Shown: positions 33,813-64,000 of the stretch, piece after piece
Layout of the letters: each line of letters opens with the position of its first letter
Numbering within the stretch: the stretch's first letter is position 1
DNA from: Cyanophora paradoxa CCMP329
Taxonomy: Eukaryota > Plantae > Glaucophyta
Direction: 5' to 3'
Assembly (NCBI GenBank): GCA_004431415.1
Contig: QPMI01000023.1
Coordinates: 160,376-224,375, forward strand
DNA length: 64,000 nucleotides
The notes under the pieces: generated by a model
What the model was told of the DNA's origin: nothing
Database searches by the model: none
What the model saw: only the letters and a program-made list of their open reading frames with translations
Position numbers and translations under genes: made by a program

Positions 33813-34302
33813 TCCATGCACGCCACTGGCCAGCTAGCGCTTAAACTGCTGGGGAAAACGCAAGCGCAAAATCCGTTGACGTTAGCATTGAAGACAACGT
33901 CCCCCCAGAAGATTAAGCCTTCTTCTGGGGTCTATATAGGAGGGCCATCAATGGGCCAAACGCGAAAAGTCAACTCCGAGAGCTCGAGACTCGGAAGTGA
34001 CGCTTGGATTGCGGAGGTTCTTATAACCGCCGCAACAGCTGTGGGGGTACCCCTTCCGAGGCTGGCGATCGCGGCGATCACGAGCCGATCGCGACCCTGG
34101 TGATCGCGACTTTCTCCCGATCGCGACCCTTTTCGATCGCGATTTCGAGATCGGGGGCATTTCCGCGATCGCGAGAAAGGAAAAATCGGAAAAGGCCGAA
34201 AAGTGCTGTTTTCACGCGTGGAATCGAGCGAAAACGAGGGTTCGAATCCCGGGCCCGGATTTGGACTTGGGCAGAATCTCGAGTCAAAATGGGAGAAAAA
34301 TG

Positions 34303-34403
34303 GGACCTAGGACCTTGGTGCTTGGTGCTTGGTGCTTGGGGCTTGGGACTTGGGACTTGGGACTTGGGACTTGGGAAGAGTTGGAATCAGAGTCTGGACT
34401 CAA
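34303..34403 (+). repeat. Heptamer array (CTTGGTG/CTTGGGG/CTTGGGA)n, copy 1
   Basis: About 9 tandem 7-mers followed by GAGTCTGGACTC; same orientation as the copy at 36307. Confidence 0.85.
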
Positions 34404-34432
34404 AACGGGGAAATTTTCGGAGGGGGAGAAAA

Positions 34433-34903
34433 ATGTCAGGCAATCTCTATTACGATTTCCCCTTTGAGTTGCATATGGCATTCGAGAGGCTGCGCGAGTT
34501 CTGGCGTTGGCACCTCACAGGACATGACATTCCCGACATAACACCAGAGCCCAACACACAGGGCGTGCTTGAAGTCATCCGTCAATATCCGCGTCGATTC
34601 AATGAATGGATTGAGTTCCACGCGACGAGCCGTTTCCAGAGCCTCCCCGAGGCCATACGCGAAAATTTCGTGAGGCTGGTGGGGCCAGGCTACGACAACC
34701 CTAACAATCATAGACCAAGCCCAGCTGGGGTGATGCGCGAAGCTCGAGAAGACCGTAGACTTTTCCGCAGGGAATTGAGAGAGGATAGACGGAGGCTTTC
34801 AATGGGGCTCCCGCAGATTGTGAGGGGGTACAGCCCGGATTACGAGACTTACCAAGAATTGTACGGCTTCGAAAATCCCTTTGAGAGGGTACTACCAGGG
34901 TGA
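34433..34903 (+). CDS. Viral hypothetical protein (156 aa)
   Basis: MSGNLYYDFPFELH...; ATG preceded by the AAATTTTCGG motif; non-repetitive protein-like composition. Confidence 0.65.
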   Translation: MSGNLYYDFPFELHMAFERLREFWRWHLTGHDIPDITPEPNTQGVLEVIRQYPRRFNEWIEFHATSRFQSLPEAIRENFVRLVGPGYDNPNNHRPSPAGVMREAREDRRLFRRELREDRRRLSMGLPQIVRGYSPDYETYQELYGFENPFERVLPG

Positions 34904-35243
34904 GGGGCCAGGGGGGGGCCCCTGAGGGTGTACCCCCCATCCGAGACTCGACCTTCGGCGGACGCACTCGGGCGATTTCCGTCAGGCCGGCTCCCTTTTT
35001 CTGCCTTCGGTCCAACGCTAAATTTGGCTTTTTTCAGGCCAGTTGGCAACGTTTTCCGTTGCGAACTAGGCCGCGAAAAAAATCGCCCACAAAACCGCGG
35101 CCCGCCGCCATTTTGGCTCACTCTTGAAACGGGTTCGCCGCCTCTCTCAGCCCAAGCAAACTCCGCCTCTCCGAATCCGTGCAAGTCCGCCCTCACAGTC
35201 ACTTCACGTTTTGCCTTTGCTGATCTCTCTTCCCTTTGCGCAG

Positions 35244-36248
35244 ATGTCGCTTCCCTCTGAGCTTGTTGAGGACCTTGCCAAGGCCCGCGAGATGTGGACT
35301 AAGTCCCGCGATTGGCCTACCCGTGCAATGGAGAAGCGTGCCCGCAATCTGGGGTACAACTACCAAGCCTACATCGGCCCGAACAACACCCCCGCCATTA
35401 CCCTCAACTTTATTCCAAGCCTTGCCCCCAAGCCCAAGCCCGCCCCGGCATTTGTCCCAACTCCCGAAATGCTCCAAATTCAAGCCGAGTCTGCCGCCGA
35501 AACTCTCGCCTGGGCCAATCCCCCGCAAGCCTTCACGAATTACCCCCCTCCGTCATCGTCGTCATCTGCCCCTCAGCCCGTCGCCGAGCCCGCCCCTGAG
35601 CCCGCCGATGACGCCGAGTCCGAGGCCTCTGACGCCGAGTCTGACATCAACGACTTTATCGACTTTGACGTGCCGATTCCATACGACTCTGAGTCATCTT
35701 CCGACTCTGAAGGCGACAACGAAAACCCGACTCGCAAGCGCCGCATTATCAAGACCAAGTCAATCGTCAAGAAGAAGTTCATGGAGACCACGTCATTCAC
35801 CGACAACTCCGAGCGAGTCAAGAATCCCGCCAAGGAACACGAAAAAGACTTGAAGATCGGCGCTGGCATTGCCCGTTCTCGCGTGACGTCACACTACACC
35901 GAGCGCCTGACTCAGCACGTCAAGACCATTGAGAAGCGCATCATCGCCAAGCGCGAAATGGCCGAACTCCGGCGCAAGTTGCGTCACGAGCGCCTTCTTC
36001 GTCGCGAGATGACGCTGGCCAAGATTGCCGAGCGCAAGAAGAAGGAGGCAGCGGAACTTAGGGCGCGCGTCGAGGCTCAGCAGCGGCGCGAGGCAGAGGC
36101 GGCAGCGGCCTTGGCGGCGCAGCGCGAGCAGGAGCGGCAGGACTTAGTGCAGGCAGCGCAGGCCCTTCCCCGCATTCCCCTTAAGTCCACGCCCGAGGCC
36201 CCGATTGACTTGGTTTCCGACGATGACTCTGATTTTGAGATGCTGTAA
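35244..36248 (+). CDS. Viral hypothetical nuclear protein (acidic tract, NLS, coiled coil, C-terminal SIM-like motif)
   Basis: MSLPSELVEDL...; PTRKRRIIK; E/R/A-rich helix; ends APIDLVSDDDSDFEML. Confidence 0.75.
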   Translation: MSLPSELVEDLAKAREMWTKSRDWPTRAMEKRARNLGYNYQAYIGPNNTPAITLNFIPSLAPKPKPAPAFVPTPEMLQIQAESAAETLAWANPPQAFTNYPPPSSSSSAPQPVAEPAPEPADDAESEASDAESDINDFIDFDVPIPYDSESSSDSEGDNENPTRKRRIIKTKSIVKKKFMETTSFTDNSERVKNPAKEHEKDLKIGAGIARSRVTSHYTERLTQHVKTIEKRIIAKREMAELRRKLRHERLLRREMTLAKIAERKKKEAAELRARVEAQQRREAEAAAALAAQREQERQDLVQAAQALPRIPLKSTPEAPIDLVSDDDSDFEML

Positions 36249-36306
36249 ATAGTATTGCGTCATTCCATTGTACATACTTGTAAAAATTGGCCGACTATTT
36301 TTACTT

Positions 36307-36799
36307 GACCTTGGTGCTCGGACCTTGGGGCTTGGTGCTTGGGGCTTGGGGCTTGGTGCTTTGGAAGCGTTACTCTCAGAGTCTGGGCCCAGACTTTCTC
36401 TGGATCTGCGAGTTTGCCGCGCCAAGTCATTAACCATCGGGCAGACTTAGAACGGGGTACTGCATTTTGCATACGACGTTTCCGGTGACATTCCAGGTGA
36501 GATTTCGAGAGAGGTAGAGTCTGAAATGTCGAGAGACTTTTCGAGAGAGTTTTCAAGCGAGATGTCGAGAGAAAGAGGGTACAAGAAGTCGTAAGAGTAA
36601 AAAAGACTACGAGTAAAAAAGAGTACGAGGGGTGGTACGACTAAAAAAGACTACGAGTAAAAAAAGTCCGTAGAAAAACTCACCTGACTTGTCTGACAAA
36701 TTTCTGATCCTGGAGAAAGTCTGGGCCCAGACCCCGAGAGAAACGCTTCCAAAGCACCAAGCACCAAGCACCAAGCACCAAGGTCTGAGCACCAAGGTC
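36307..36799. repeat. ~95-100-bp inverted repeat pair with heptamer iterons and 14-bp palindrome, around a repeat-rich spacer (origin-like)
   Basis: Arm 36307-36406 is the near-exact reverse complement of 36706-36799, and each arm contains GTCTGGGCCCAGAC. The spacer has TCGAGAGA and GACTACGAGTAAAAAA repeats. Confidence 0.9.
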
Positions 36800-36838
36800 C
36801 AAGGTCCCCGGTCGAACATTTTCTGAGCCTAGGGCAAA

Positions 36839-37204
36839 ATGGCCCTGCTCAAGTGCACCGACTCCCGCGACCTGCCCTACAACGTCCTGGTCAACTCGGA
36901 CGTGCCCCGGAGTGCGATGGAGTTTCCCTGGCGACTGGACAGGGGCAGGGTGACCAAGACCTTCGGGAGGCGCAAGCACTACCTCTCCCAGCTCATCCTC
37001 GGGAAGCCGCCACGTGGACTGTACGTGGAGCACATCAACGGCAACCCGCTGGACTACAGGAGGGAGAACCTGCGCTGGGTATCGATGTCGGAGATCCAGA
37101 AGAAGAGGAGGGAGGGTACGAGCTTGCAGGAGAAGAGCGAGGAAATCGCGGAGATGATGGAGGCGGCGCAGGCGCTGGTGCAGCTCAGCCAGTCTAGAAG
37201 ATAG
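36839..37204 (+). CDS. HNH endonuclease-fold protein (HNH_3-like), probably degenerate active site
   Basis: YLSQLILGKPPRGLYVEHINGNPLDYRRENLRWVS matches the HR..VDHINGxxLDNRxxNLRxxT pattern with substitutions. Confidence 0.75.
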   Translation: MALLKCTDSRDLPYNVLVNSDVPRSAMEFPWRLDRGRVTKTFGRRKHYLSQLILGKPPRGLYVEHINGNPLDYRRENLRWVSMSEIQKKRREGTSLQEKSEEIAEMMEAAQALVQLSQSRR

Positions 37205-37205
37205 C

Positions 37206-37964
37206 CTAGGCCGCTATGTAAATCTTAGAGTCCATTTCGCGGTTCGTTACCGCGGTCAAGTAGGTCAGGGCGCCATCGGAAGAGGCAGTCGTCAGATCCG
37301 CGCAGGCGGAGACCAGCTCCGCCATCAGCGTAGACCCCACCACGAGCCCGGATGTGGGCATGCCCGCGATGTTGTTGAAGAGCTTGAAGGTGAATTTATT
37401 GAAGGCGAGTCGCGGCCAGACCTGGGTACGGGGATTCTTTGCATCGAAGGTGGTGGGGGCTACCGTGGTCGTGGCGTTGGACATCATCTCCTTTGCGGTC
37501 ATCTTCCAGAGGTTGTACATTTCGGAGGGCACTGCCCGGGTGGAGCCCGTGGTGGAGCCGTCTATGTTCGTCTGGGAGCCGCCGTTGAGTTGCCGGTAGA
37601 GGCTGGTATCGGGGGTGAACTTCAGCTCGAGCACGCGCACCGAGGGGCGATCCGGGGACGAGGGCTCTATCTTTTTGAGCAGGCCCGAGAGCCAGAGCGC
37701 CTCCGCCTCCTCGGCGTTGACGGTGTTCGTGGCGTTGCCGTCGATGTCAAAGTAGACGTACACGGAGCAGGAGACGGGGCTCTCGAAATCGTTGGACGTG
37801 ACGCGCAGCATGACCGGATTCTGCAGCTTCACGGTCATGTTGCTGGCGTAGCTTCCGTCCCAGGTGACGGAGTCCGTCCCCGCATTCGCAGCCGTGCCCG
37901 TGATGCCCTGCCAGTCGGGCGTCGTGAATCCGGAGGTCATGAGGGTGGTGTTGGTCGCGGGCAT
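37206..37964 (-). CDS. Viral structural-type protein, paralog A (candidate minor capsid protein)
   Basis: 252 aa, beta-rich; collinear similarity to 37998-38678. Confidence 0.7.
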   Translation of the reverse strand: MPATNTTLMTSGFTTPDWQGITGTAANAGTDSVTWDGSYASNMTVKLQNPVMLRVTSNDFESPVSCSVYVYFDIDGNATNTVNAEEAEALWLSGLLKKIEPSSPDRPSVRVLELKFTPDTSLYRQLNGGSQTNIDGSTTGSTRAVPSEMYNLWKMTAKEMMSNATTTVAPTTFDAKNPRTQVWPRLAFNKFTFKLFNNIAGMPTSGLVVGSTLMAELVSACADLTTASSDGALTYLTAVTNREMDSKIYIAA

Positions 37965-37997
37965 TTTGGGAGGGAATGAGAAAGATTATCCGTACAC

Positions 37998-38678
37998 CTA
38001 ATCCACCAACCACCCCATTGTGAAGATGGACATATCGCCGCCTACCTCTGCGACACGAGCCACGGGCTGCACGTGGCGGGAGCCCGTACCGAAGCTGTAG
38101 CTGTACGAGCATTCGACGAGCTCGGCGCAGAGGGTGCTGCCTGTGACGAAATGGGGGTGGTCGGTTGCGTAGGAGAGGGGGTAGATCTGGAATTGGAAGA
38201 AAGTGAAGGGGAGACGGGGAAGCGAGCTTGCGCGCGGATTCCCGTCTGTGTACAGTGCGCCCAGTCTAGAGGGACTGGGATTCAGCTTTTCGAAGAGTTT
38301 ACTCCCCTTGAGGTTACCAAGGTGGTAATAGGCCCCCGTGCCCGGGAGCGCTGCATCCGTGTACTGCCGAGCCGTGGGGTACGACTCCGTGAACTTGATC
38401 TCGAGACAGCGGAGGGGCGCGGCCGTCGCCGTGGCGGGCGCCACCCTCTTTACAAGGCCGGACTCGTGCAGCAGCTCGATGGTCTCAGCCGTGACGTATC
38501 CCGGGTCGAAGAAGAGCTGGTAGGAATAATTCTTTGGCGTCTCGTACGCGTTCTGCACGGCCTGAATCACGACGGGATTTTGAATGAAGACGTCGACGTA
38601 GCTGCCCGAGGAGATCTTTGCGAAATCGTTGGCGTTGGAGCCGACGTCGAGGGTGGCATTGTAGACGGAGCTCGTCAT
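37998..38678 (-). CDS. Viral structural-type protein, paralog B (candidate minor capsid protein)
   Basis: 226 aa from MTSSVYNATL; shares QNPV, SGL.K, LE.KFT, NPR...PRL.F and GSTL.AELV with its neighbour. Confidence 0.7.
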   Translation of the reverse strand: MTSSVYNATLDVGSNANDFAKISSGSYVDVFIQNPVVIQAVQNAYETPKNYSYQLFFDPGYVTAETIELLHESGLVKRVAPATATAAPLRCLEIKFTESYPTARQYTDAALPGTGAYYHLGNLKGSKLFEKLNPSPSRLGALYTDGNPRASSLPRLPFTFFQFQIYPLSYATDHPHFVTGSTLCAELVECSYSYSFGTGSRHVQPVARVAEVGGDMSIFTMGWLVD

Positions 38679-38716: not shown

Positions 38717-40039
38717 ATGCGCAGGGTGAAGCGCATCCTGATGGTGAGGCGCAAGGGCCCGAAAGCGCCCCCCGCACCCCTGAATCTTGTAGCGAGCGCA
38801 CCCAACGACCAGCAGCAGCCCGTTAGCCTCAGTTGGACGGCGGTAGATGGGGCCACGGGGTACAAGATCTACAGGGACGGGGACTACCTCGACGATTCCG
38901 CAACCAACTCCTACAGCGACGCGACCACGGTCTGGGGTACGGGGTACGAGTTCCAGATCTCCGCGACAAACTCGGTGGGGGAGGGGCCGAGGAGTATCAT
39001 TGTCTACGTCACCACGGACCCGGCAGCCCCCTCTGGCGTCACTGTAACTGGGCCAACTCTCGCAACACCATCCACAATTGTTCTCTCCTGGAGCGGCGTG
39101 GTGGGCGCGACGGGGTACAAGGTGTACCGGAACGGGACCCTTATCGCGAGCCCGGACTGGCTCACCTTCTCATACAGCGACAGTGCCGACGGCTTGTTTG
39201 GTACCGCGGTCACGTACTACGTTGTAGCTGCGGGTGCCACAGATGACGGGCCGCAGTCCAGCACTGCTTCCCTCGCGCTTGCAGCGTCCGTTTTCAAGCA
39301 CGTATTCGGCTCGAGTCTCATCCAAGAGTACGACGCCAGCTCGGTTACCGGGATCGGTACTGTACCCGCGAACAACACAAAGGTGGCATCCTGGTACAAC
39401 CTCGCAGAGAGCTCGCAGCCCGCCAGCCAGGCCACGGATGGCAACAGGCCCACTTTCTACTCGGCATCCTCACGGACGAAGGGGGCCTCGCTGCCTGCCA
39501 TCCGCTTCACAAAGTCTCTGTCCAACTTCATGAATTTCCCGGTTACCCCCTTCAGCAATGTCGCTTTCCCGGGCGGCTTCTCCATTTGTCTCGTGTACAG
39601 CCCTTACTCGGTCAACACCGCTGCCGGTAATATCTGGTTCTCTGGAACGTCGCCTCCATCTGCGTACATGGGCGTCCAGGATCTCGGTACTGGGGGGGCT
39701 TACGTTGCAAATATCGATTCCTCTGCCCAGACAATTACCACGAGCACCTCCAACTTTAGTGCCTCGGCAATGCGGGTATTTCTCACGGACTTCTCCGCTT
39801 CTGGAATCCGTGTCTTCAACCCTTCTGTCTCGTCGGGTGCATCCCAGACGGTGACTCCCGGGGTGTACACGACCGCACACAACCCCACCGCCGTAAGCCG
39901 CCCCATCGGCAATATCGGTGGTTACCTTGCTTCGTACATCGACGCTGAAATATCTCACATTCTCATCTTCAACCGCCTGCTAACGGCAGAGGAGCGCACG
40001 GCAATGCTGGATCACCTCTACGGAACATGGGTAGCTTAA
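38717..40039 (+). CDS. Two fibronectin type III domains + LamG/concanavalin-like domain (virion adhesin candidate)
   Basis: PPAPLNL..VSLSWTAVDGATGYKIYRDG..YEFQISATNSVGEG; second FN3 IVLSWSGVVGATGYKVYRNG; LamG-like VASWYN..SQAT..RPTF and DAEISHILIFNRLL. Confidence 0.85.
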   Translation: MRRVKRILMVRRKGPKAPPAPLNLVASAPNDQQQPVSLSWTAVDGATGYKIYRDGDYLDDSATNSYSDATTVWGTGYEFQISATNSVGEGPRSIIVYVTTDPAAPSGVTVTGPTLATPSTIVLSWSGVVGATGYKVYRNGTLIASPDWLTFSYSDSADGLFGTAVTYYVVAAGATDDGPQSSTASLALAASVFKHVFGSSLIQEYDASSVTGIGTVPANNTKVASWYNLAESSQPASQATDGNRPTFYSASSRTKGASLPAIRFTKSLSNFMNFPVTPFSNVAFPGGFSICLVYSPYSVNTAAGNIWFSGTSPPSAYMGVQDLGTGGAYVANIDSSAQTITTSTSNFSASAMRVFLTDFSASGIRVFNPSVSSGASQTVTPGVYTTAHNPTAVSRPIGNIGGYLASYIDAEISHILIFNRLLTAEERTAMLDHLYGTWVA

Positions 40040-40921
40040 TCACACGAGATAAACTAGCTCGCCGCTGAAGATGGTGAAGGAGGAATTATCCACGCCCAGT
40101 GCGCTTCCCAGATAAGTACCACCCCAGGCCGACAGATCGACGAATTCACCTTGCCCCAGAGCGCACATGAACGAAAACGAAAGGTGGCGATTGTCGCCAG
40201 TTTCGCCCGTAAACGCCCAAGGTTTCGCGCCGTCTATACCCTCACTCCCATTTTTCCGCAGCGTCACGGAAAGGGGAACGGTAGAACCGCTGGTTGCCGA
40301 TAGCGAAAATCTGTACACCCCGGCCACGGGCGCTACGAATTTGCCCTCGGTTGCATTGAACCCCCCTGAATTGACCCACGTCCACCCCCACGGTTTGATG
40401 GGCCCCTTCTCGGCATTCGCTGTGAATGCAACACTCAGACCCGCGCAGAATGCCGGTTTCGGGTGCTTCAGGTACCCCCCGATGGTCGCCGCTCCGGAAA
40501 TGGTCGCCGCTCCGGAGATGGTCGCAGCCCCGGTGATCGTCGCCGCCCCGTTCACCCGCAGCCCGCCCACCACGTTCGCCCCGCCCCCCTCCACGCAGAG
40601 CGCCGCGTTGGCCTCGCCGTCTGCGGTCCCGTTGAAGGTCAGCTGGTTGGTGGACCAATCGCTCCCATTAAAGGCCCCGTTCGTCACCACCAGGCGTTGC
40701 GCCTTGACGCGCCCCGGCACGGCCGACCCGCCCTCCCGCGTGCGCATCTTATCGCAGCGCAGCTCGCCGACGCGGACGAGGTCGGCCTCGGAGAAGGGGA
40801 CGGCCGTGGCATTGTAGGGGGTTTCGGTGGTCTGGTAGCCGAGGATCGTCTCTTTAATCGTGTGATCCTTGACATGGTTCACACTTGCCGCGTAGGTGAA
40901 TAGAGGAACGGCGACGGACAT
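40040..40921 (-). CDS. C1q-domain fibre protein with GAATI(S/T) hexapeptide shaft
   Basis: PAFCAG..GFNATEGKFVAPVAGVYRFS..LRKNG..LGQGEFV..FSGELV is a canonical C1q head, preceded by 18-bp tandem repeats. Confidence 0.85.
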   Translation of the reverse strand: MSVAVPLFTYAASVNHVKDHTIKETILGYQTTETPYNATAVPFSEADLVRVGELRCDKMRTREGGSAVPGRVKAQRLVVTNGAFNGSDWSTNQLTFNGTADGEANAALCVEGGGANVVGGLRVNGAATITGAATISGAATISGAATIGGYLKHPKPAFCAGLSVAFTANAEKGPIKPWGWTWVNSGGFNATEGKFVAPVAGVYRFSLSATSGSTVPLSVTLRKNGSEGIDGAKPWAFTGETGDNRHLSFSFMCALGQGEFVDLSAWGGTYLGSALGVDNSSFTIFSGELVYLV

Positions 40922-40942
40922 TTTTACAGGGGCTGAGAAAAA

Positions 40943-43900
40943 TCAAGCGGCTATTGTCCCGGTGGCCTGCCAGTGCAGGGTCACATTTATTCCGCCGGTG
41001 CCTGGATCCGTGTAATCGTAGTCGCTGTACACTTTGTAATAGACGCTAAAGGTGGAGAGGCCAAGGTAATCGAAATATCCCTTCACCTCTGTCCCCCCTG
41101 TCCCGTGTTGAAACGAAAACGTTACAGTGGGCTCGCTTGTGTATGAGGTACCGAAGATGATTGTCTCCGTGTAGCTGTTCCATCCCACGGCGGGGTAGCG
41201 GGTCGTGGTTTTTTTCCCGTGTTGAACATATGCATTCGGGTTGCACTCTTGCGCTGAAACGACTCGGTGCACCTTCTGAGCATCGCCTGTGCTCCTCACG
41301 TAAACGTTCCTAAAGATCGCGTCGCCCTTGCACTGCTCCGCAAAGACGGGGTACGTTACGTTCTGCTCAAAGTTCGTCAACGTGCTGTCAGCGGCCCATG
41401 CGTACGTTGCACTGTGCACGTAATCTCTCCACCCCGTTGGCTCAAAGGCCGTCCGAACGTCGTACGTGCATGCGTATCCGTCTCCAACGCGCAAAGTGGT
41501 GAGACAGTTGATGTGATTCGCCGTGAAGGGGTCTAAGGAGGTTGCGAGCGCATACTGGCTGTGGCTGTGGGTGAAGGGGGCGTACACCCCCTCGTGATTG
41601 TGCCCCGCCGTCGCGTACACGCCTTCGTGGTTGTGCCCCGCCGTCGCGTACACGCCTTCGTGGTTGTGGGTCGAGAGGGCGTACCCTGACAGGTCGGGCG
41701 CCCCCGCCCAGTCCCTTATCTCTGAGAGCGAGTGCGTGTGCCCCCTGCCGCTCAAATCTGCAAAGGCACCAGTGTACGCAACCGTCGCAAGGCGGGGCTG
41801 TACTACACCCACGGTGCTGACGGGCTGCGCCACGGGGTACTCGAGCTGCGCTGCGTTTACTTCCGCTGGCTTCCCCGTGATGCTATCCCACGCCCACGTG
41901 GTTGGCACCGTCGGTATCGTCGGCTTCCCTTTTAAGTCTCCGTACTCACCTGTGTGCGCCACCGTCGCCAGCTGTGGTCCGATCACGCCCACGGTGCTTA
42001 CCGCCTGGCTCGCCCCCGGCGCCATGTGCCACTCGTAGTTCTGCGCCGCAAACACGGGCTGCAGGGCCGAGGGTGCCCAGTACTCGACGCCCTTGGCCAC
42101 CTCTTTCCTGTACGGCGCCGCCGGCCTGTCCATCAATTTATCGACGTACCCCTTGGGCACGAGCCAGTTGGCCTTGGGGCTCTGCGTCGCCACGCCGTTG
42201 TCGATGTAGGTGCCGTAGTTCCTGAAGGCGCCCGGCTCCCACCACTCCTGCATCTGGAAGCGGTCGGGCAGCTCGATGCGCGCGATGGTGCCGGGGAGGC
42301 GCACGATGCGCTTGTTGCCCATGTGGTAATCGCGCTCGTAGATGATCGCGTTGCCGGGCCCGCCGCCGCCGCCGATGGGCGGAAGGGGCAGGAGGGGCGG
42401 AAGGGGCGGGAGGGGTGGAATAGGGGGGATGGGGGGAATGGGGGGGATGGGCGGCAGGCCGGGCGGGCTGAAGGAGGGCGGACTGGGAGGGGAGGGTACG
42501 CCGCCCGGCCCCGAGGGTGGATTGGGGGCCGTGGGCGGCGAGATGGGGGGGTTGCGCTGCGGCGGGGGCGGGCCCTGGCTCGTGGGAGGGCCGGGCTTGG
42601 GCGTCTCGGGGGCGATCTTCGGTGCCTGGAATCCCTTGAAGAGGTCCTTGACGAAATCCGTGATGCGCGGTCCCAGAAACTCCCAGAGCTTCGAGAGGAT
42701 CAAGTCGACCACGATTCCGATCGCGGTCGAAATCGCCACCTCCTTTGCAATCTGCGCGACCTGATCCCTGGTGACGTACCCCCCGTTGGCGATCGCCTGC
42801 ATGACGAGCCCGCCGATAAAATCCTGCAGTCCCGAAGAGACGGTGCCGGCGATCAGCATCTTCGTCATACTGGGGATTTCGCGCTTCAGCTGCTGCCAGG
42901 CGCTGTCCGTCTCCGCGCGAATCTTATCCTTCTTCGAGCTCACCTCCGAGCGCGCGTAGTCTTCCAGCTCTTGGCGCGCCCTCCTGTTCATCTCGGCGAT
43001 TTCCTTGTCCAGCAGGCTCCAGTCTCCCGGCTTCACCTGCCCCCTGCCGTAAGGCGCAAGCACGTTCCTCAGGATGGTGTTTGCGTCGCCCACGACTCGC
43101 GCGGCGGGCGGCTCGCGGCTCCGGTCGATCGGCAGGAAGCCCGGTGCGGGGCGCAGACCGCTCCCGCCCACCGGCTCGGCCCCCCGCACGTCCAGGGCGT
43201 CGGGGTCCGGGGCGTTGCGTTGGACGGGCAGGTTGGCGGGCGACGGGCGCAGGCCCCAGCCCCCCGCCGGCTCGAACCGGTCGGGCCTCAGGTCGCCGCG
43301 CGAGACGCTGACGGGCCGGCCCGTCCGCCTGTCTCGCATGACGAGGGGCGCGCGGGGTACAATGTCCCGGGGCAGGCCTACCCCCGCCGCCGAGTCGACG
43401 GAGCTACGCACCGAGCCGACGCTCGAGGGGGGCGGGCTCGGCCTGACCTGGGGCGGGGGCGGGTTGCGGATGACGGTGCGCGCCGTGCCATCGCCCGCCT
43501 CTCCGCTCGCGATGGACTGCACATCGGCTCGCTGGCTGTACGGCAGGGTGGGCGCATCGCTGTAAGGGATTGTAGAAGCATCGCTCGCATCGCTTCTCGC
43601 AACGCTCGCGGCGCTCCTGTTGTCGTACGGGATGGTAGGGGGGATTGTGGTCGAGGTGGCCGTCGTCTCTCGGGGGGCGCGCGCCTGGCCCATGAACTCC
43701 TGCAGCCTGCGCTCGGCCTCCAGGCGGGCCTGGCCCGACGTCCACGAGTTGCCCGACAGGCCGCTGTAGCCCGAGATCTGCGAACGGGGGCTGGGGGGCG
43801 GCAGGTCGGTGGCGGGCCCCGGGATGGAGCCCGCGAGGGAGGGGGCGGAGGGGGGCCTTGCCGGGGGGATGGCGAGGGCCTGGTTTGCCCTGCGCATCTC

Positions 43901-56766: not shown

Positions 56767-58739
56767 GGGGGCTCGCCTCGCGTTTCGCGCCGCGCAACGT
56801 GCTCGCGATCCCGGGGGGCGGGGACTCGCACATCACGCCCTTCGAGAGCGACAAGTACGCACACTTTCAGCAGCTGATGAAGACGGCGCTGGCGAGGGCC
56901 ACGCCGGAAATTCGGTTCGAGGAGCGCGATCGATCGGACAAGCTTGCCGAGGTGGAGGCGCAGGCCATCGCCAACGCGTACTACATCAACAAGTTCCAGC
57001 AGATGGAGTCGAGCCTCGACGAGGAGTACGAGGAGGGCTTCCGCGCCTGGCTGATGGGCCAGTCGGCCTTCACCGCGAACCTGAAGGCCAAGGGGGCGGG
57101 CGCCTGCGACGTGGACGGCAAGAACCTGACGGTGCTGCCGGGCGTGCGGGAGTTCTGCAAGTCGAAGGAGGATCAGATCACCGAATTCCTGAAGCGCAAG
57201 AAGCGCCTCGAGACGCTGGGCCCGATGAACCTCGAGGACGCGTACTACTACTACAAGTACATCATCAACGGCGAGGAGTTCAAACCCACGAGCATCTACG
57301 CGCGCGAGAACAAGAAGCCCGAGGAGCTGATCGGAGGGAGGTACGACCCCGACTACGCGAACCGCAACACGCGCCAGCCCTTCGCCCAGGCCGAGCCGCC
57401 CTCGAGCTCGGACAGCGAGGGGCCGGGGCCGGACGAGAGCCGCCAGCGCGACGTGCCCAGGGAGAGGCGACGGGCGAAGAAGCGGATGGACAAGGAAAAG
57501 TACATCAAGGCCCGCCGCGAGCAGAAGGTGCGCATCACGGACGGGGACAACGAGGCCATCGAGGCCAGTTTCCCGGAGGCGGCCATGGGCAGAGCAATCA
57601 AGGCGGGCAGGGGCGCGCGCGAGGCCCTCATTCAGAAGGCCCTACCGTCCAAGGAACCCAGGGACGAAATGATCGAGTCCGACGACGAAGGGGGGGCTCC
57701 GCCGCCGCCGGGGCCACCAGCGCCGCCAGCGCCGCCAGCGCCGCCAGCGCCGCCCGGGCCGAAGACGCCCCCGCTGGCGCCGCAGCCCGGCCCTCGCAGC
57801 CCCGGACACGGTGGCCAGGCCGTCCGCACCCCAGCGGAGCAGCCCCCGCCGCCGCCCCCGCCGCCGCCGCCGCCCGAGCCACAGGCGGGGCCCTCGCGCC
57901 CGCCAGAGGTGGTGGCGGCCGAGGCGGTGGCTGTTGCGGCGGCAAGGGCCGTGCTCGAGCAGGTGCCCGTCGCCGTCCAGGCCCAACTCGCAAACGCGGG
58001 GATAGAAATTGCCCCCTCGTCCCCGCGCGAGAAGGAAGCCGTGGACAAGCGCAGGGCCGCGTACAAGGATATGGGGCGGAGACCCGGGTATGCGACCATG
58101 GACGTAAACGATGCGCTTGAACTGGCCGCCAAGAAGGTGAAAGAGGCGACAGAAGCTCGCCGTGCGGGGCTGCTGAAGAAACTTCGCTCCGGTGCTCCAG
58201 GCAATCCAGCCAGTCCAGACGATCCCATGGACGAGGAGACGGAAGCGGAGCGCGCGGCCAATCGGGCTCGCCGGGAGGGATTCCTTGTGAGCGTATCGCC
58301 CGAAATCGCGCGCGCTGCAGGGGACGCCGCCGTTGCGAAATACCTTGCAGAAGAAATCGATTACAACCAACTGGCATCGATAGCCCATGCCCAGGCAGCT
58401 GGAGTCAACAAGGCACAGGCACGGATAGCAGAGCAGCACCGTGATATTTCGGACCTGGGCGGGGATGTCGTGAAATTCTTCGAAGCTGAGCGAGAAGCGG
58501 ACCCGCTCGGATCTGCGGCAAAGGGCCCCTTTATGGAGCGTGTGCGGCGCGTAGAGGAGCGGGCCCAGCAACTCATGAACTTGGATCCAGAGCGTTACTT
58601 CATGTTGGGCCAAGGACTTGCCCTGGGTTATCTTAACGGCACACGCGACTGGTCTGCGATCACGGACGCACTCCGCAAGAAGGCGTACGACGCGGACCTA
58701 GCGAGACGGGGGGCGCGCCCTCTAATAACGTTAACGTAG
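56763..58739 (+). CDS. Viral hypothetical protein (658 aa) with globular N-terminus and Pro-rich linker
   Basis: Long ORF directly upstream of the MCP; FRAWLMG..LPGVREF..GPMNLEDAYYYYKYI. Confidence 0.75.
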   Translation: MRGLASRFAPRNVLAIPGGGDSHITPFESDKYAHFQQLMKTALARATPEIRFEERDRSDKLAEVEAQAIANAYYINKFQQMESSLDEEYEEGFRAWLMGQSAFTANLKAKGAGACDVDGKNLTVLPGVREFCKSKEDQITEFLKRKKRLETLGPMNLEDAYYYYKYIINGEEFKPTSIYARENKKPEELIGGRYDPDYANRNTRQPFAQAEPPSSSDSEGPGPDESRQRDVPRERRRAKKRMDKEKYIKARREQKVRITDGDNEAIEASFPEAAMGRAIKAGRGAREALIQKALPSKEPRDEMIESDDEGGAPPPPGPPAPPAPPAPPAPPGPKTPPLAPQPGPRSPGHGGQAVRTPAEQPPPPPPPPPPPEPQAGPSRPPEVVAAEAVAVAAARAVLEQVPVAVQAQLANAGIEIAPSSPREKEAVDKRRAAYKDMGRRPGYATMDVNDALELAAKKVKEATEARRAGLLKKLRSGAPGNPASPDDPMDEETEAERAANRARREGFLVSVSPEIARAAGDAAVAKYLAEEIDYNQLASIAHAQAAGVNKAQARIAEQHRDISDLGGDVVKFFEAEREADPLGSAAKGPFMERVRRVEERAQQLMNLDPERYFMLGQGLALGYLNGTRDWSAITDALRKKAYDADLARRGARPLITLT

Positions 58740-58781: not shown

Positions 58782-60152
58782 ATGGCTTCCGCGCTCATCT
58801 CCACCCCCACGACCGCCCTGCACCACTCGCTGCGCAGCTCCGACGCGTCGGTGCACGTGCACGAGACCTTCGACACGGCGATGCCGTTCGTGGACGAGGT
58901 GCTCGAGGTGAGCCCCGTGCAGTCGGGCGTGGGCTTCGCCCAGACCGTCGACATCGTCATCCCGCACTCGGCGCCGATGTTCAACGACTCCTGGCTCAAG
59001 GTGACGCTGCCGGCGCTGACGAACGCGGACCACTTCTACATCCCGAAGGCCGGCTACGTGCTGCTCAAGACGGTGAAGATCTTCGTGGGCGCGCAGCTGA
59101 TCCACGAGTACAACGGCCATTACGACGCCATCTACGGCGAGTTCGAGGACGACAAGTCCGTCATCCAGCACGTCGACATGGTGAACAACCTCTGGGCGCA
59201 CCAGCCGCTGCGCCGCCGGGGCAAGGCCCCGAACACGCTGTACATACCGATTCGCATCGCGACGGGCCACGGTCGAAAGTTCGCAGTGCCGCTCCACAAG
59301 CTCCACTGCTCCGGAAACGACATGAAGCTGCAGATCACGTACGCCTCGCAGAAGGAGATCACGGCCTCGTACGTGGACGGCGGCCTGCACACGAACACCG
59401 GCCTGACGAGCACCGTCAGCCTGGACACCAAGCTCATCCTGCGCTACGTGCACGTCGACTCGCGCGAGCTGGCGCTGCACCCGAACTCGTTCACGTGGGC
59501 CGGCAAGTACGTGCAGCACTACCACGTCTCGTTCGAGTCGGGCAAGGCCATCCGCCTGCCCTTCACCGGAATCTGCTACGAGCTGATCATCGTGGTGCGC
59601 GACAAGCCGCACACCGACAACGGCGAGCACTTCTGGCGCTTCCGCCCGCTCGACAAGATCGAGCTGAAGTGCGACAACATCAAGGTGCTCGATAGCTCGA
59701 ACCACGACGCGCACTTTTTGCGCACGGCCATCACGCACAAGGAGCACACGCACGCCCCCGCGCGCAAGCACCTCGAGCTGCTGCGGGGCGTGACCTCGAT
59801 GGACGGGACGGCGGCGGCCGACGTGGCCGACGCGCTGCACCCGCACCCGTGGTCGGGCAACGACACGCCCCCCACGACCCTCGCGACCCACGACGGGCAC
59901 AGCAGCGACATCCAGCCCCGCAACGCGGGCCAGTTCGGGACGGAGTTCATCTACTCGCTCCCCTTCGGCACGGACGTGGCCGACAACACCAAGATGTTCG
60001 GCGGCCTCGACATGGGCGCCTTCAAGACCATCGAGCTCACGCTCACCACGCTCAAGACCTACGGCGCGGACAAGCCCGTGGCCGACATCTACTGCCGCTA
60101 CTACAACGAGATCACCTTCACCAAAGGCGGCGCCTACCGCCGCTTCCATTAG
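58782..60152 (+). CDS. Major capsid protein, NCLDV-type double jelly roll
   Basis: FAQTVDIVIP..WLKVTLPAL, GYVLLKTVKIFVGAQLI, TLYIPI, IRLPF..CYELIIVVR, IYSLPF, GGLDM, YYNEITFTKGGA parallel the NCLDV MCP blocks (FG..V...I.R.GDL, IGGQ.ID, HPVKEL, G.LNFSR, YN.LR...G). Confidence 0.88.
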   Translation: MASALISTPTTALHHSLRSSDASVHVHETFDTAMPFVDEVLEVSPVQSGVGFAQTVDIVIPHSAPMFNDSWLKVTLPALTNADHFYIPKAGYVLLKTVKIFVGAQLIHEYNGHYDAIYGEFEDDKSVIQHVDMVNNLWAHQPLRRRGKAPNTLYIPIRIATGHGRKFAVPLHKLHCSGNDMKLQITYASQKEITASYVDGGLHTNTGLTSTVSLDTKLILRYVHVDSRELALHPNSFTWAGKYVQHYHVSFESGKAIRLPFTGICYELIIVVRDKPHTDNGEHFWRFRPLDKIELKCDNIKVLDSSNHDAHFLRTAITHKEHTHAPARKHLELLRGVTSMDGTAAADVADALHPHPWSGNDTPPTTLATHDGHSSDIQPRNAGQFGTEFIYSLPFGTDVADNTKMFGGLDMGAFKTIELTLTTLKTYGADKPVADIYCRYYNEITFTKGGAYRRFH

Positions 60153-60239: not shown

Positions 60240-61568
60240 ATGACGAAGGGCCACTCTATGATGGACATTGGGGAGGGCTCTAAGAAGCAGCGCCAGTCGC
60301 TGAAGAACGACCTGAAGGCCGACATGGACGGCATCGTGAACAAGTACCTTCCGGGCACGATTATGCCCGAGGTGCCCGTCGTAGATGGAACGAAGGCGGA
60401 CATCTACACGCCCGAGGACAAGGCGCGGGGCCTGGGGCTCAGCGGGGGGGAAACGAAGACCCTGCCCGCGATGAAGTACACGCCCTCGATGGAGAAGCTG
60501 ATGCGCATGGGCATCCGACAGCAGCTGCAGAACGCGAACCCCGGCCGCACGATCAACGAGGAGGATGTGGAGAACGCGTTCAGCCTGCGGAAGGAAATCA
60601 TGATTCGCGATTTCGACCAGTGGGCGATGACGGCCTTCGACCTGAAGCAGCCGGGCGTCGCCAAAATGCTCGAGGAATATTACCCCGAGCTGCTGGAGCG
60701 AATTACGAACATGATCGAGCAGGATATCGAAATTCAGCGCTTCGACAAGTATCAGAAGGTTTTCTTCCCGATGAACTACGACGATCTCGTCATGAAGTGG
60801 GCGCGCGAGCGCGGCTGGATCAAGACGATGGAAGAGATCGAGAAGGAGAACCTGCTCGGGCCGGCCGGTCGCTACGGGCAGACGGATGCGAACCCGCAGG
60901 GGCTGCGCGCGGGCTACACCCCCGACCTCTCGCCCATGTTCAACGCGCAGACGGCCAACATCAGCAGCGCCGTCAACAAGCCCTACGGCCGCAACGACGT
61001 GGACTTCAGCCGGGGCAATCCGTTTGGGGCGATGCTCCTCGATCAGCCGGGGACGCGCGGCCCGGCCCTGCCCACGGCCACGCCTTACGCGGACCAGAAC
61101 CTGCTGCCCCGCGTCGTCAACCCGCTCCCTGCGCTGCAGAGCAACCAGCTTGCCACGCCGTTCGAGAAAGGGCGCATGGAAGCGCTCCGTGCAAAGGGGA
61201 CGGTGGCCGGTATGTCCGAAGCATCGCAGACTGCAATTCAGACAGCCTTCCAGGCCCTCGTCCGGAACACGGAGAACAGTCAGATTACCATGCTCGCGGA
61301 AACGAACGCCCGGAAGGCGGAGATGTACGACCTAGCAGCCCGGGCCTCCGACCGGTCAGTAATTTCTGAGGCCCACGCGAGCACATGGCAGCGACGGAGG
61401 CGACGCTGGGCGAGCAGATCGAGGCGCGCTGGGGCCGCTTCCTCGACCTGCTGGAGCCGGAGGCCAAGGAGCCCGGGGTGCGGGCGCAGATCCAGTCGCT
61501 GCGCGGCATCGGGGCCACGGCGGTCATCGTTCTGTTCAGGAGGCACATCAACGCGGAGGCGGAATTGA
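60240..61568 (+). CDS. Viral hypothetical protein; true stop probably TAA 61360-61362 (1-nt indel)
   Basis: Protein-like up to ~aa 370; the tail overlaps the next gene and its promoter motif. Confidence 0.7.
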   Translation: MTKGHSMMDIGEGSKKQRQSLKNDLKADMDGIVNKYLPGTIMPEVPVVDGTKADIYTPEDKARGLGLSGGETKTLPAMKYTPSMEKLMRMGIRQQLQNANPGRTINEEDVENAFSLRKEIMIRDFDQWAMTAFDLKQPGVAKMLEEYYPELLERITNMIEQDIEIQRFDKYQKVFFPMNYDDLVMKWARERGWIKTMEEIEKENLLGPAGRYGQTDANPQGLRAGYTPDLSPMFNAQTANISSAVNKPYGRNDVDFSRGNPFGAMLLDQPGTRGPALPTATPYADQNLLPRVVNPLPALQSNQLATPFEKGRMEALRAKGTVAGMSEASQTAIQTAFQALVRNTENSQITMLAETNARKAEMYDLAARASDRSVISEAHASTWQRRRRRWASRSRRAGAASSTCWSRRPRSPGCGRRSSRCAASGPRRSSFCSGGTSTRRRN

Positions 61569-61714
61569 TCAAGGCGAAGGACGACTCGGTTTTCGAGAGG
61601 CTGCCGCAGGAGTACGCCTCGGCCGTGCGCTCGCTCTTCTACGGCAGCGGGCCGGAGCTGCGCGAGAAGCTGTGGCTGTACGTCGAGCTCTTCGTCGAGC
61701 TGACCTCGGAGTGA
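61385..61714 (+). CDS. Small helical protein resembling a conserved NCLDV family (I..KD..F ... K.W.Y..L..L)
   Basis: IKAKDDSVF..LREKLWLYVELFVEL; upstream TAATTTCTGAG motif. Confidence 0.65.
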   Translation: MAATEATLGEQIEARWGRFLDLLEPEAKEPGVRAQIQSLRGIGATAVIVLFRRHINAEAELIKAKDDSVFERLPQEYASAVRSLFYGSGPELREKLWLYVELFVELTSE

Positions 61715-61743
61715 AAAATATTTCTAAGGGGCAGGCGTAAAGG

Positions 61744-62536
61744 ATGGACCCCTCGGCGATGCTTGGCTTCGAGGCGCTGGCCGTGGACGGGCCGAACCCG
61801 TGGGAATCCCGCAGCCCCGGAAGAAGGGCCGCCCGCGAAGGAGGGCAAGGAAAAGGGGGAGAAGGCGCCGAAGGCCGACAGGATGGCGCTGCCGGCGACG
61901 GGCCCGCGGTGCCGCGCGGCGCGAGCAAGGGCGCGAGCTTCAGCGTGCAGGAGCACATCGAAATGACGAAGAAAAAGAGCAGAGCGTGAAAAAGGCGCTG
62001 GGAATCGACCTGCAGGAGCGGCCGCGGACGAGGCGCAGGTGGACGTGGACGAGAAGAAGCAGGTTCTGCGGCAGATCGCGCAGTACGGCGCTCGTTCGGG
62101 GGCGAGCTTACGTCCACGAAGAAGCTGAGCCTGGCGACGCCGCTGGACGAGCTGAAGGAAGAGTACGAGGAGATTCAGCGCGAGCTGAGCACGCGGGTTC
62201 GCTGGAGGCGGCGCGCTCTTTCTGATCGCGGGCATGCACTCGCTGGAGCACCTGAACAAGGCGTACGATCCGATCGGCCTGAAGCTCGACGGGCTCGGGC
62301 AGGCGACGCTCTCTTCGATGGACCAGGTGCAGCCGATCTTAGAGGAGCTGGTGATCAAGTACTCGCGCTACGTGACCCTGGGGCCCGAGGCGCGCCTGGG
62401 GATGGCCCTGGTGCAGACGGTGCTGGCGGTGCACGCGGCGAACGCGAACCCGGAGATGATGAAGGAGGTGACGGAGGCGGCGGCCTCGACGGCGGCGGAG
62501 CCCAAGGCGGTGGGCGGCAAGTTCAACGGCCTTTGA
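61744..62536 (+). pseudogene. Conserved NCLDV protein (DUF5767-like), multiple frameshifts
   Basis: Pieces across frames: MDPSAMLG, EKKQVLRQI, PLDELKEEYEEI, LEHLNKAYDPIGLKLDGL..ILEELVIKY..GPEARL. Confidence 0.6.
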
Positions 62537-62576
62537 GTGTAAAAGCTTGTAATCAATTGCACCAAAAATTCACAAT

Positions 62577-63360
62577 TTATTCGTCTAAACTACTGCATGG
62601 GGCTGCGTACATAGACTCGGGGTTTAGGTAGGCTCGAAGCTGGCCTCGTTGTCGTAGGGCCTGAAGGCCAGCTCGGCGTGCGGCCTGCGAAGCGAAAGGC
62701 GCCGACCTTGCACTGCTGCACGGCGAGGAATGACCACTTGAGGCCGAACTTGCCCTCGGGGATGGCGTAGGCGGTGTCGATTTGACGAGGGCGGCACCAG
62801 GTCGCCGGTGCCGATGTGGCGCGCTCGGTGATGAGGTAGTTGGACATGTCGACGACGGGGATGTCTTGCGCTTGCCCGCCATCGTCTGGTGCGGATGCGC
62901 ATGTTGAGGTACTTGTAGAAGGCCTGGCCCGACTCCTTGTCGACCTTGATGCGCACGCTGGGGGTCTGCAGCACCGAGATCTGGTCCTTGGAGAGGGAGC
63001 GCCGGGCGAGACCTTGAGCTTGGCCTGGTTTCTGCTGCACGAACTCGCAGAATTTCGCGTCCAGGGCCTCGAGCAGCTTGAGGAACTCGTCCGCGGCGGG
63101 GTTCGTCTGGCCGTCGACGGCGCTGAGATCGGTGAGGTCAGCGTGTAGAATCCGCCGTTTTCTTCCATGACAAGGCCTTCTTCTCGTCGCTCCAAGCTTG
63201 CCTTGCTCGGTGTGATGCAGGGGTTGATGGTGACCATGGGCGGCGCGTACATCATGAGGCCCTGCAGGCCGTCGTACTTGGCCTTGATGCGGCCGGTGGC
63301 GTCGATCTCGAAGGCGAGCTTGGCGGGGTCGATCTCGTTGGCGTTGCGGACGGTGGCCAT
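62577..63360 (-). pseudogene. OB-fold single-stranded DNA-binding protein (NCLDV/T7 gp2.5-like), multiple frameshifts
   Basis: EIDPAKLAF..IKAKYDG..LMMYAPPM; EFLKLLEALDAKFCEF; IPVVD; KFGLKWSFLAVQ. Confidence 0.6.
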
Positions 63361-63462
63361 GTTGTCTGAGCTTAGTGTGCGATCAGCCTAGCGCTAGAAA
63401 ATATTTAAGGGCGCCCCACCTGACTTCAGGCTGACCTCGGGTGATTCAGGTAAAACACGTGT

Positions 63463-63732
63463 TCAATTCACCATCAGATCCTCTATGACGGCTACACGAA
63501 TCGAGCTAATCCTGAACCTGCCTACAATGCACTTGTCTCTCCAGAGCACGAGCTCGCTCTTGCGGGGGAGCAGCTCAATCCAATCGTACTCATCGCCCTT
63601 GCGGTGCTCCGAAGAAATGTCGCGAAGGAGCTTGCAGAAGTAGAACGTGTTGCGCCTGAAATCATCGTCGTGCATTACGTATGCGAAGATGCCGAAGGTG
63701 AGGCAGCAGGTGAAGTAGGTGGGGGTGCACAT
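63463..63732 (-). CDS. Viral hypothetical protein (89 aa)
   Basis: ORF downstream of the E-box array. Confidence 0.45.
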   Translation of the reverse strand: MCTPTYFTCCLTFGIFAYVMHDDDFRRNTFYFCKLLRDISSEHRKGDEYDWIELLPRKSELVLWRDKCIVGRFRISSIRVAVIEDLMVN

Positions 63733-63797
63733 TCCTGATTTCCCTTGGCTGTGAAGTGTGAGCGGATGGTGCGGCGCGCCTGCGGTTTTGAGGCCGT

Positions 63798-63887
63798 TCA
63801 GGTGAGGGTCAGGTGAGCGCTCAGCTGAGGTTCATGTGAGGGCAACTTGAAAATTCGGCGTCATTTACGTCAGCGTCATTTACGTCA
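63798..63887. promoter_or_regulatory. Phased E-box array plus tandem 15-bp TGACG-containing repeat
   Basis: TCANNTGA at 63798, 63809, 63821 and 63832; GCGTCATTTACGTCA x2 at 63858-63887. Confidence 0.5.
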
Positions 63888-63979
63888 CGGAGTTTGGGCC
63901 CGAGTCCCGGGCCCAGCCCCTCGCCAAGTAGTAAAAAAATAGATTCAAACCTTGGCGCCATTTTCTGAGGCTAGCTGCC

Positions 63980-64000
63980 ATGGACGACCTCTGTATCCTT
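63980..64000 (+). CDS. Start of next viral gene (truncated by window end)
   Basis: ATTTTCTGAG motif 15 nt upstream of ATG (MDDLCIL). Confidence 0.5.

Follow-up and report, generated by a model that had tools for sequence, protein, structure and literature searches.

The question raised by the stretch described here, 64,000 nucleotides of contig QPMI01000023.1 (positions 160,376 to 224,375, forward strand; assembly GCA_004431415.1) of the glaucophyte Cyanophora paradoxa CCMP329, hereafter the window, is what element fills its right half and how that element came to lie beside spliced host genes. It was assigned, at a probability of about 85%, to a multi-copy mriyavirus family in C. paradoxa, most likely integrated in the chromosomes and likely a sister lineage of Gamadviridae; it measures at least 30 kb, its right end lying beyond the window, against 35–45 kb for genomes of Mriyaviricetes. 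The family is recognised by its gene set, by paralogs on many contigs, by three capsid types and by a motif upstream of many genes. What is added to prior work is the placement by family, the expansion to many copies with likely exchange of capsid genes, and the upstream motif common to gamadviruses. The novelty is moderate, since embedded Mriyaviricetes regions in Glaucocystophyceae and Pavlovophyceae assemblies are already described in the accessible passages of a preprint (bioRxiv 10.1101/2025.04.19.649669); the link to a glaucophyte host, offered as new in the original prediction of an endogenous Yaravirus-like provirus, was thus on record.

The genes that carry the assignment are the following (coordinates in the window; E values in brackets; Table S1 is that of PMC11253617):
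48756..50786, reverse strand: HUH_long, open 676-aa frame with a C-terminal HUH domain (HAH, Y-x-x-K; gamadvirus HUH profile 5e-16; 12 members at 90% identity)
50810..51651, reverse strand: short HUH endonuclease with gamadvirus motifs (HUH profile 6e-17 and 3e-6 in two frames; frame break at about 51.3 kb)
51883..52713, forward strand: VLTF3 late transcription factor (PF04947 3e-24; gamadvirus profile 1e-56)
52714..53058, reverse strand: 114-aa hydrophobic (membrane) protein, conserved beside VLTF3 in gamadviruses (profile 3e-12)
53471..54541, reverse strand: A32 packaging ATPase, 356 aa (49% identity to PEV2 AUD57306; tree)
54579..55055, forward strand: RuvC/A22 Holliday junction resolvase (PF04848 7e-7; gamadvirus profile 6e-16)
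56763..58739, forward strand: Mriya_1 homolog (profile 3e-7; gene-order label, in agreement with the Table S1 numbering)
58782..60152, forward strand: double jelly-roll major capsid protein (MCP) of the nucleocytoplasmic large DNA virus (NCLDV) type (Pfam Capsid_N 6e-8; structure; tree)
60240..61568, forward strand: Mriya_51 homolog (profile 2e-7; label in agreement with the Table S1 numbering)
61385..61714, forward strand: PEV_20 homolog, weak (profiles 1e-3 and 1e-4 in a library of 1112 frames; gene-order label)
61744..62536, forward strand: Mriya_48/DUF5767 envelope protein, several frame breaks (DUF5767 6e-12; gamadvirus profile; gene-order label)
62590..63360, reverse strand: SSB of the PEV_26 type, several frame breaks (gamadvirus SSB profile 2e-16; gene-order label)

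The NCLDV-type double jelly-roll MCP, A32 ATPase, VLTF3, RuvC, an HUH endonuclease with its catalytic motifs (the short gene being frameshifted here), Mriya_1, Mriya_48 and Mriya_51 are traits of Mriyaviricetes; the duplication of HUH into HUH and HUH_long and the SSB (PEV_26) are traits of Gamadviridae. HUH_long, SSB (PEV_26) and PEV_20 are found in 0 of 39 non-gamadvirus rows of the 60-genome Table S1, as far as that source is accessible (PMC11253617). Frames of the window matched, clearly or weakly, the profiles of 10 gamadvirus families (ATPase, VLTF3, RuvC, SSB, Mriya_1, Mriya_48, Mriya_51, weakly PEV_20, the 114-aa membrane protein, and an HUH profile including a PEV1a protein that matched both HUH genes); the MCP matched at E 0.006 only. 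The capsid, ATPase, VLTF3, RuvC, SSB and both HUH genes had been named beforehand from the letters, and Pfam, the gamadvirus profiles and the identity to PEV2 confirmed them, the Pfam match of the ATPase (1e-4, 22.2 bits) lying slightly below the Pfam cut-off of 22.8.

Kinship was followed by identity, trees and structure. Among the best 80 of 129 confirmed viral loci by ATPase, 71 stood at 43–52% and 9 at 31–35%; overall the identity was 43–53% to gamadvirus loci vs 31–35% to other loci. In the ATPase tree (56 rows, mixture model) the Cyanophora clade (100/100) joined the gamadviruses at 97/97, apart from the large-virus loci, its position relative to the gamadvirus clade being left open; in the VLTF3 tree (34 rows) Cyanophora was sister to all 29 gamadvirus rows (support 99); in the MCP tree (105 rows; matches outside 360–520 aa dropped) it lay outside the gamadvirus clade and grouped with it and 4 further proteins (support 96). 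The element thus grouped with mriyaviruses apart from large NCLDVs in three trees with few outgroups, long branches and no Yaraviridae, two of them quick LG+G4 runs. Nesting inside the Gamadviridae clade was not observed, and the element was filed as a sister lineage, and not as a member, because it falls outside the family clade in the VLTF3 and MCP trees; the distinct lineage of the original prediction was borne out in this form. The model of the MCP (pLDDT 78) gave Z 33.5–36.7 to the PBCV-1, faustovirus, SGIV and EhV capsids (top structural row: rmsd 2.3 Å, 353 aligned), Z 21 to virophages and 19 to PRD1, with no Polinton-like virus (PLV) MCP among the 50 listed rows; with the NCLDV Pfam domain, a capsid of PLV or virophage type is not indicated (Z 21 to virophage vs 33–37 to NCLDV). 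PDB sequence searches with the MCP and the SSB gave nothing significant.

From gene set, profiles and trees the element is likely a mriyavirus sister to Gamadviridae, which supports the endogenous mriyavirus of the original prediction. The epithet Yaravirus-like had to be given up: gamadvirus-only genes are present and the nearest named relatives are the Pleurochrysis endemic viruses. The phylogenetic and structural check proposed with it thus separated the element from the large NCLDVs and moved it to the gamadvirus side, in trees lacking Yaraviridae.

Two observations concern the surroundings of this kinship. EukProt sets of haptophytes, bearing the labels Prymnesium polylepis and Pleurochrysis carterae, contain gamadvirus-type HUH and ATPase proteins (P0319, P0104); a 25.6-kb viral contig (L099/L100; 35% GC), whose HUH is gamadvirus-like and whose ATPase is very distant, may belong to one of the smaller mriyavirus-related groups. 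In 68 of 69 gamadvirus loci the 114-aa membrane gene and VLTF3 lie on opposite strands and share >150 nt at the 3' end of VLTF3; in the window the membrane gene is a separate open reading frame (ORF) abutting VLTF3, with no such overlap. It may be an overlooked core gene, as Table 1 of Yutin et al. does not list it as conserved.

Host and copy number: The MCP search gave 15 match clusters, all of EukProt proteins; the 8 clusters looked up were all Cyanophora paradoxa, one of them holding the MCP of the window itself, in keeping with the predicted algal host. At least 30 named contigs carry MCP models, and in 16 of 21 named ATPase contigs (15 of 18 members shown for one ATPase cluster) the listed MCP is 2–6 gene numbers from the ATPase. 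The words of 28.5–38.4 kb were recovered to 67–72% in 14 of 24 listed runs (2012, 2019, 2024). Members at 90% identity numbered 12 for HUH_long, 11 for the 149-aa protein at 47399..47848 and 1–4 for left-arm genes, counts made with a protein collection from which 5 of the 10 window proteins queried are absent; the left arm accordingly appears to vary among copies. On 4 of 10 contigs compared the ATPase was 98–99.7% identical to that of the window and the MCP just 54–62%; on 3 the ATPase stood at 98% and the MCP at 95–97%; on the remaining 3 the ATPases stood at 85–90%. The pairing of near-identical ATPases with MCPs at 54–62% points to exchange of capsid genes, and MCPs of three types have likely moved between copies.

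Outside the top seven rows, three of which are fragments, no relative of the MCP was better than E 1e-11 among 1.84 billion representatives. Close MCP relatives were not found in viral contigs, nor close ATPase relatives in metagenomes by single-sequence search; the ATPase alignment reached a top identity of 53% among the best 80 of 186 metagenome matches. Two public proteins 90% and 80% identical to the ATPase (P0036 and P0041) belong to the Cyanophora clade, which shows that close relatives are present beyond this proteome.

Upstream motif: WTTCT(G/A)A stands about 20 nt ahead of many starts, here and in gamadviruses, and hardly in large-virus controls. As [AT]TTTCT it was found within 40 nt upstream of 17 of 33 window starts, mostly near −20 (controls: antisense 3; shuffled mean 0.7, maximum 4 in 2000 shuffles), and after 0 of 8 convergent stops. 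Since the motif was picked by eye on this window, the gamadvirus counts are an independent test, drawn from loci related to each other: WWTTCTNR stands upstream of 17/30 MCP and 31/59 ATPase starts (shuffled about 1), the corresponding counts being 40/59 for the membrane gene, 14/35 for Mriya_51, 4/22 for RuvC and 0/30 for PEV_20; a looser pattern is present ahead of 233 of 527 gamadvirus ORFs (antisense 70, shuffled 20) vs 10/83 and 1/36 in large-virus loci. The motif is likely a promoter, to judge from its position and recurrence, and we infer that it may be read by VLTF3 as a late promoter. Two other roles were considered and rejected: splice acceptor, the would-be acceptor G not being conserved (24% G), and terminator, by the empty convergent ends. 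A TCTA core in the late promoter of CroV and mavirus, for which the literature consulted gave no confirmation, would suggest dependence on a helper and is taken as a lead only. The motif was not found in published literature (most subscription journals being outside coverage), and the word promoter has 0 occurrences in the accessible text of PMC11253617.

A second candidate element, CACCTG/CAGGTG, clusters in the long gaps between genes (8 sites over 1509 bp vs shuffled mean 0.8, maximum 6; gaps picked after the motif was seen) at 36494–36681, 51727–51758, 63417 and 63799–63810. Some of them lie upstream of VLTF3 and of the 89-aa ORF within 63463–64000, both without the TTTCT motif; the boxes are candidate early promoter elements and are rare upstream of gamadvirus VLTF3 (5/58).

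Left boundary: The GC content is about 70% in the host part, about 50% at 32–34 kb and 55–74% further right. The features from the last host genes to the presumed viral end are:
27050..27685, reverse strand: PIH1-domain gene (part), spliced (Pfam PF08190; spliced contig of run X15, guessed RNA)
27949..30649, forward strand: last spliced host gene, EngB-type GTPase with a PPR-like N-part by eye (PF01926 on one exon; X15 spliced contig ends at 30649)
31860..33320, no strand: non-coding module with 47-nt terminal inverted repeats (TIRs; 98% complementary) at both ends (repeat analysis; contig depth)
33321..33880, no strand: low-complexity spacer with a 43-nt tandem pair (repeat analysis; about 7x depth)
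33903..33930, no strand: perfect 10-bp stem with an 8-nt loop, candidate viral end or HUH nick site (z −4.0; depth step nearby to about 40x)

The introns of the PIH1 and GTPase genes are skipped by contigs of the one run X15. Short-read contigs were placed on 22000–34300 of the window, an overlap of 31 letters being the criterion for bridging. Single-copy host contigs stop at 31872, 31888 and 31889 in three DNA runs, just inside the left TIR (start 31860; partner 33274–33320), as a unique contig is expected to stop at a repeat; no target-site duplication was seen around the 1.46-kb TIR module. Contigs inside 32.3–33.8 kb have 5–11x the depth of single-copy contigs, and single contigs at 34164 about 44x (X9) and about 41x (X10), summed depth not being equal to copy number. 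The viral left end likely lies near 33.9 kb, because the depth climbs there to about 40x; this agrees with the start at about 33.9 kb given beforehand. The same depth speaks for a multi-copy family, which the original prediction had missed. Its claim that the virus directly adjoins spliced host genes held for the splicing; a 2-kb multi-copy module lies between about 31860 and 33.9 kb. The hairpin at 33903–33930 was matched in stability by 0 of 200 shuffles and is the sole perfect 10-bp hairpin in 32001–64000, several others standing in the host part. Bins with the 47-nt TIR are far deeper than any other stretch covered, as for a high-copy non-autonomous host transposon, and some contigs (about 7x) link sequence immediately within the left TIR with that from 33320 on. 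The host part also shows a GC dip (55–66%) at 12000–17000, with an REJ-domain match at 14294–15085.

The remaining features of the viral part are:
34433..34903, forward strand: 156-aa ORF without family (Pfam scan begun at upstream ATG)
35244..36248, forward strand: low-complexity 334-aa ORF preceded by a splice-acceptor-like tract (no paralog at 90% identity)
36307..36806, no strand: 94-nt inverted repeat pair of heptamer units with a 312-nt spacer (third copy about 2 kb leftward)
36839..37204, forward strand: HNH endonuclease (PF13392 3e-8; 4 members at 90%)
37206..38678, reverse strand: two ORFs, 252 and 226 aa, without family (ORF list, Pfam scan)
38717..40039, forward strand: fibronectin-III protein, likely virion surface (PF00041 5e-6)
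40040..40921, reverse strand: C1q-domain protein, likely fibre head (PF00386 1e-8)
40943..46828, reverse strand: very large coiled-coil/proline-rich gene, fibre-like repeats near the C-terminus by eye (no Pfam match; frame break at about 46.3 kb)
47399..47848, reverse strand: 149-aa all-beta protein, weak candidate for a minor capsid protein (predicted structure)
55257..55640, forward strand: DUF5679 zinc-ribbon gene, frame break (Pfam scan)
63463..64000, no strand: 89-aa ORF and start of the next gene with upstream motif (the element continues past the window end)

Thirty hand-picked ORFs make up 95% of 36839–63732, broken genes counted as coding, so that the packed, essentially intronless gene array of the original prediction stands for this interval; the left 3 kb of the element may not be intronless core virus, given the ORF at 35244 with its acceptor-like tract and no paralog at 90%. 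The 312-nt spacer of the inverted repeat is A-rich and stranded, and the repeat could be an origin or an invertible segment; it recalls the short tandem repeats reported on the flanks of Phaglo-G, obtained from a Phaeocystis assembly (bioRxiv 10.1101/2022.07.28.501842, accessible part). The model of the 149-aa protein (pLDDT 56) gave a viral jelly roll as best match (Z 8.8, rmsd 4.0, 135 aligned) and also resembles cellular beta-sandwiches (Z 7); scores in the structure atlas were <0.9, and BFVD had no match at E 0.001.

The Pfam scan covered 34 ORFs and then 45 frames chosen from the 208 frames of at least 75 aa beyond 31.8 kb. In these selected frames of an incomplete element no family match to a DNA or RNA polymerase, pPolB, or an RVE or tyrosine integrase was obtained, which agrees with the polymerases and the integrase being absent from the original gene list. 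No transposase was seen within the window and no tRNA gene at 34.4–64 kb; gamadvirus clusters at the positions of PEV_8/12/14/15/22/27/34/35 gave no match in the window, and 14 gamadvirus clusters compared profile-to-sequence with 19 orphan ORFs all scored <3%.

Intactness: MCP, ATPase, VLTF3, RuvC, HUH_long and Mriya_1 are open frames; five genes (short HUH, SSB, Mriya_48, the large gene at 46828–40943 and DUF5679) are split across frames. With these and the right end outside the window, the provirus cannot be called largely intact, as had been proposed. The breaks may be sequencing or assembly errors, because the assembly differs from short-read contigs at a host homopolymer (29126); one paralog gene model omits the very HUH interval that is broken in the short HUH, and a shared lesion is possible for that reason.

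Several points weigh against the assignment. All three trees lack Yaraviridae and the Cyanophora branches are long in each, two trees being quick LG+G4 runs; one of the 4 further MCPs (P0186), with relatives on 50–218 kb contigs, weakens the MCP grouping; and the MCP model, built on an alignment of NCLDV-type matches, favours NCLDV folds. VLTF2, PDDEXK, Mriya_50, PEV_22 and the presumed helicase, a cluster labelled by position alone and without Pfam match, gave no profile match in the window, outside which the right end lies; of these, PEV_22 is a gamadvirus trait and the others are traits of Mriyaviricetes. No listed contig bridges 31860 by the 31-letter criterion (best overlap about 30 nt), and 31.9–34.3 kb is covered by multi-copy contigs only, so the exact host–virus junction is unproven. 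The loop of the hairpin at 33903–33930 was found in no gamadvirus stem in 1.15 Mb searched, and part of the paralog contigs may represent alternative haplotypes.

In the model of Yutin et al. (PMC11253617, accessible text), replication is nuclear, rolling-circle and HUH-initiated with host polymerases; by homology, the element would replicate in the nucleus with host DNA and RNA polymerases. The HUH endonuclease would nick an origin and begin rolling-circle replication, assisted by SSB and RuvC; VLTF3 would drive transcription from WTTCT(G/A)A ahead of structural genes; the A32 ATPase would fill a jelly-roll capsid bearing fibres. The weakest step is entry into the chromosomes, which may proceed through HUH nick-and-join at a hairpin that marks the terminus, for example 33903–33930, a route proposed because no integrase was seen and held at somewhat less than even odds; capture by host repair with later duplication is given the same standing, and entry as part of a TIR transposon is thought unlikely. 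Recombination between co-resident copies is likely and would explain the capsid swaps, and CpG methylation probably keeps the copies silent; methylated giant-virus-derived elements have been described in C. paradoxa, mriyaviruses not being named in the accessible passages (bioRxiv 10.1101/2025.04.15.648976). The reading in its fullest form, a still-mobile, integrase-free, deep mriyavirus lineage written by HUH into the glaucophyte genome at a terminal hairpin, with about 40 copies trading capsid genes and a VLTF3-read late promoter conserved across Gamadviridae, is rather improbable as a whole.

A tenable, if minority, account takes the copies as passive fossils: a few genomes that host DNA repair took up in repeat-rich regions and that segmental duplication then spread, without virus-driven integration. 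The five broken genes, the paralog model with perhaps the same HUH lesion, the scanned frames free of integrase and the 5–11x module left of the virus, as co-duplication would produce, all fit it, and accidental insertion is favoured by Zhao et al., in the accessible passages, for Nucleocytoviricota regions without mobility genes. It is opposed by three MCP types at 54–97% identity beside ATPases at 84–99%, which indicate several founders and exchange, by open core frames, by host DNA that is single-copy left of 31860, and by the homopolymer mismatch, which leaves sequencing error as a source of the breaks. That the provirus is cargo of a host TIR transposon, beginning at the 31860 TIR with a matching TIR beyond the window, is unlikely: single-copy DNA does end at the TIR in three runs, the roughly 7x contigs do run from sequence beside the left TIR to 33320 and beyond, and the 1.46-kb module alone has no target-site duplication; against this, the module at 5–11x and the viral end at about 40x mean that most viral copies lack it, the depth of the TIR bin far exceeds that of the virus, as an independent host repeat would show, and no transposase was seen.

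A chimera of host DNA with a free or episomal virus of the culture, joined via a shared repeat, would suit a junction that lies unbridged inside high-copy repeats; it is very unlikely in view of divergent, partly broken copies on at least 30 contigs, of their presence in runs from three different years, and of the description of such regions as embedded in host sequence (bioRxiv 10.1101/2025.04.19.649669, accessible passages). Assignment to Yaraviridae, to the PLV-like elements Zoravirus, VC134 and VC218, or to a large NCLDV of which this would be a fragment is equally hard to credit. The faint match of the MCP to the gamadvirus profile and its next relatives, generic NCLDV-type MCPs at E 1e-11 or weaker, would allow it; the gamadvirus-only genes, the ATPase identities and 30 kb in which no polymerase was found speak against it, as does the failure to find an RVE or tyrosine integrase, carried by most Zoravirus, VC134 and VC218 genomes in the accessible part of their description. 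The multi-copy mriyavirus family, most likely integrated, is retained as the preferred reading.

For mriyaviruses, a nuclear life cycle with rolling-circle replication is predicted from sequence. A cultured alga that holds dozens of copies whose core genes are open would make testable the entry into chromosomes without an integrase, the HUH protein as replication starter and the target of VLTF3 in a virus in which no RNA polymerase was seen; the conserved upstream motif is a concrete target for this and marks the gamadvirus side within the class. If the copies are still mobile, they would offer a model, inducible and open to culture, of the nearest kin of the giant-virus ancestor.

Among known systems, Helitrons and AAV Rep-mediated integration use HUH enzymes to insert DNA into chromosomes, with ends marked by hairpins and no duplication of the target; for the Cyanophora element they are an analogy only, canonical Helitron ends not having been found. 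Zoravirus (VC102), VC134 and VC218, compared by description in the accessible part of bioRxiv 10.64898/2026.06.19.733378, share an NCLDV-like capsid module, Mriya_48 and sometimes HUH; they measure 20–30 kb and mostly carry RVE or tyrosine integrases, whereas the Cyanophora element exceeds 30 kb and has VLTF3, two HUH genes and no integrase seen. Mriyaviruses are described there as lacking integration genes. Yaraviridae (Yaravirus brasiliensis) share the class core (MCP, ATPase, VLTF3, RuvC, HUH, Mriya_1/48/51) and, in the accessible Table S1, lack HUH_long, SSB and PEV_20, all present here; Yaravirus has tRNAs, none being found here at 34.4–64 kb, and no enriched promoter motif was found in it (bioRxiv 10.1101/2020.01.28.923185, accessible text). 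The Glaucocystophyceae regions are of the same virus class and host class and are described as embedded; species, family placement, copy number, capsid types, ends and promoter are missing from the accessible passages, and the regions probably represent the same element family as the Cyanophora copies. Closest are Gamadviridae (Pleurochrysis endemic viruses, Phaglo-G; PMC11253617, accessible part), with HUH and HUH_long, SSB, Mriya_1/48/51, PEV_20 and RuvC, with VLTF3 beside the 114-aa membrane gene and the ATPase, with the common upstream motif and with no polymerases seen. The Cyanophora element differs in branching outside the sampled family (VLTF3, MCP), in an MCP that barely matches the family profile, in the VLTF2, PDDEXK, Mriya_50 and PEV_22 not detected in the window, in a rearranged gene order, in an HUH_long of 676 aa vs about 1600–1860 in gamadviruses, and in its glaucophyte host, where it is present in dozens of copies.

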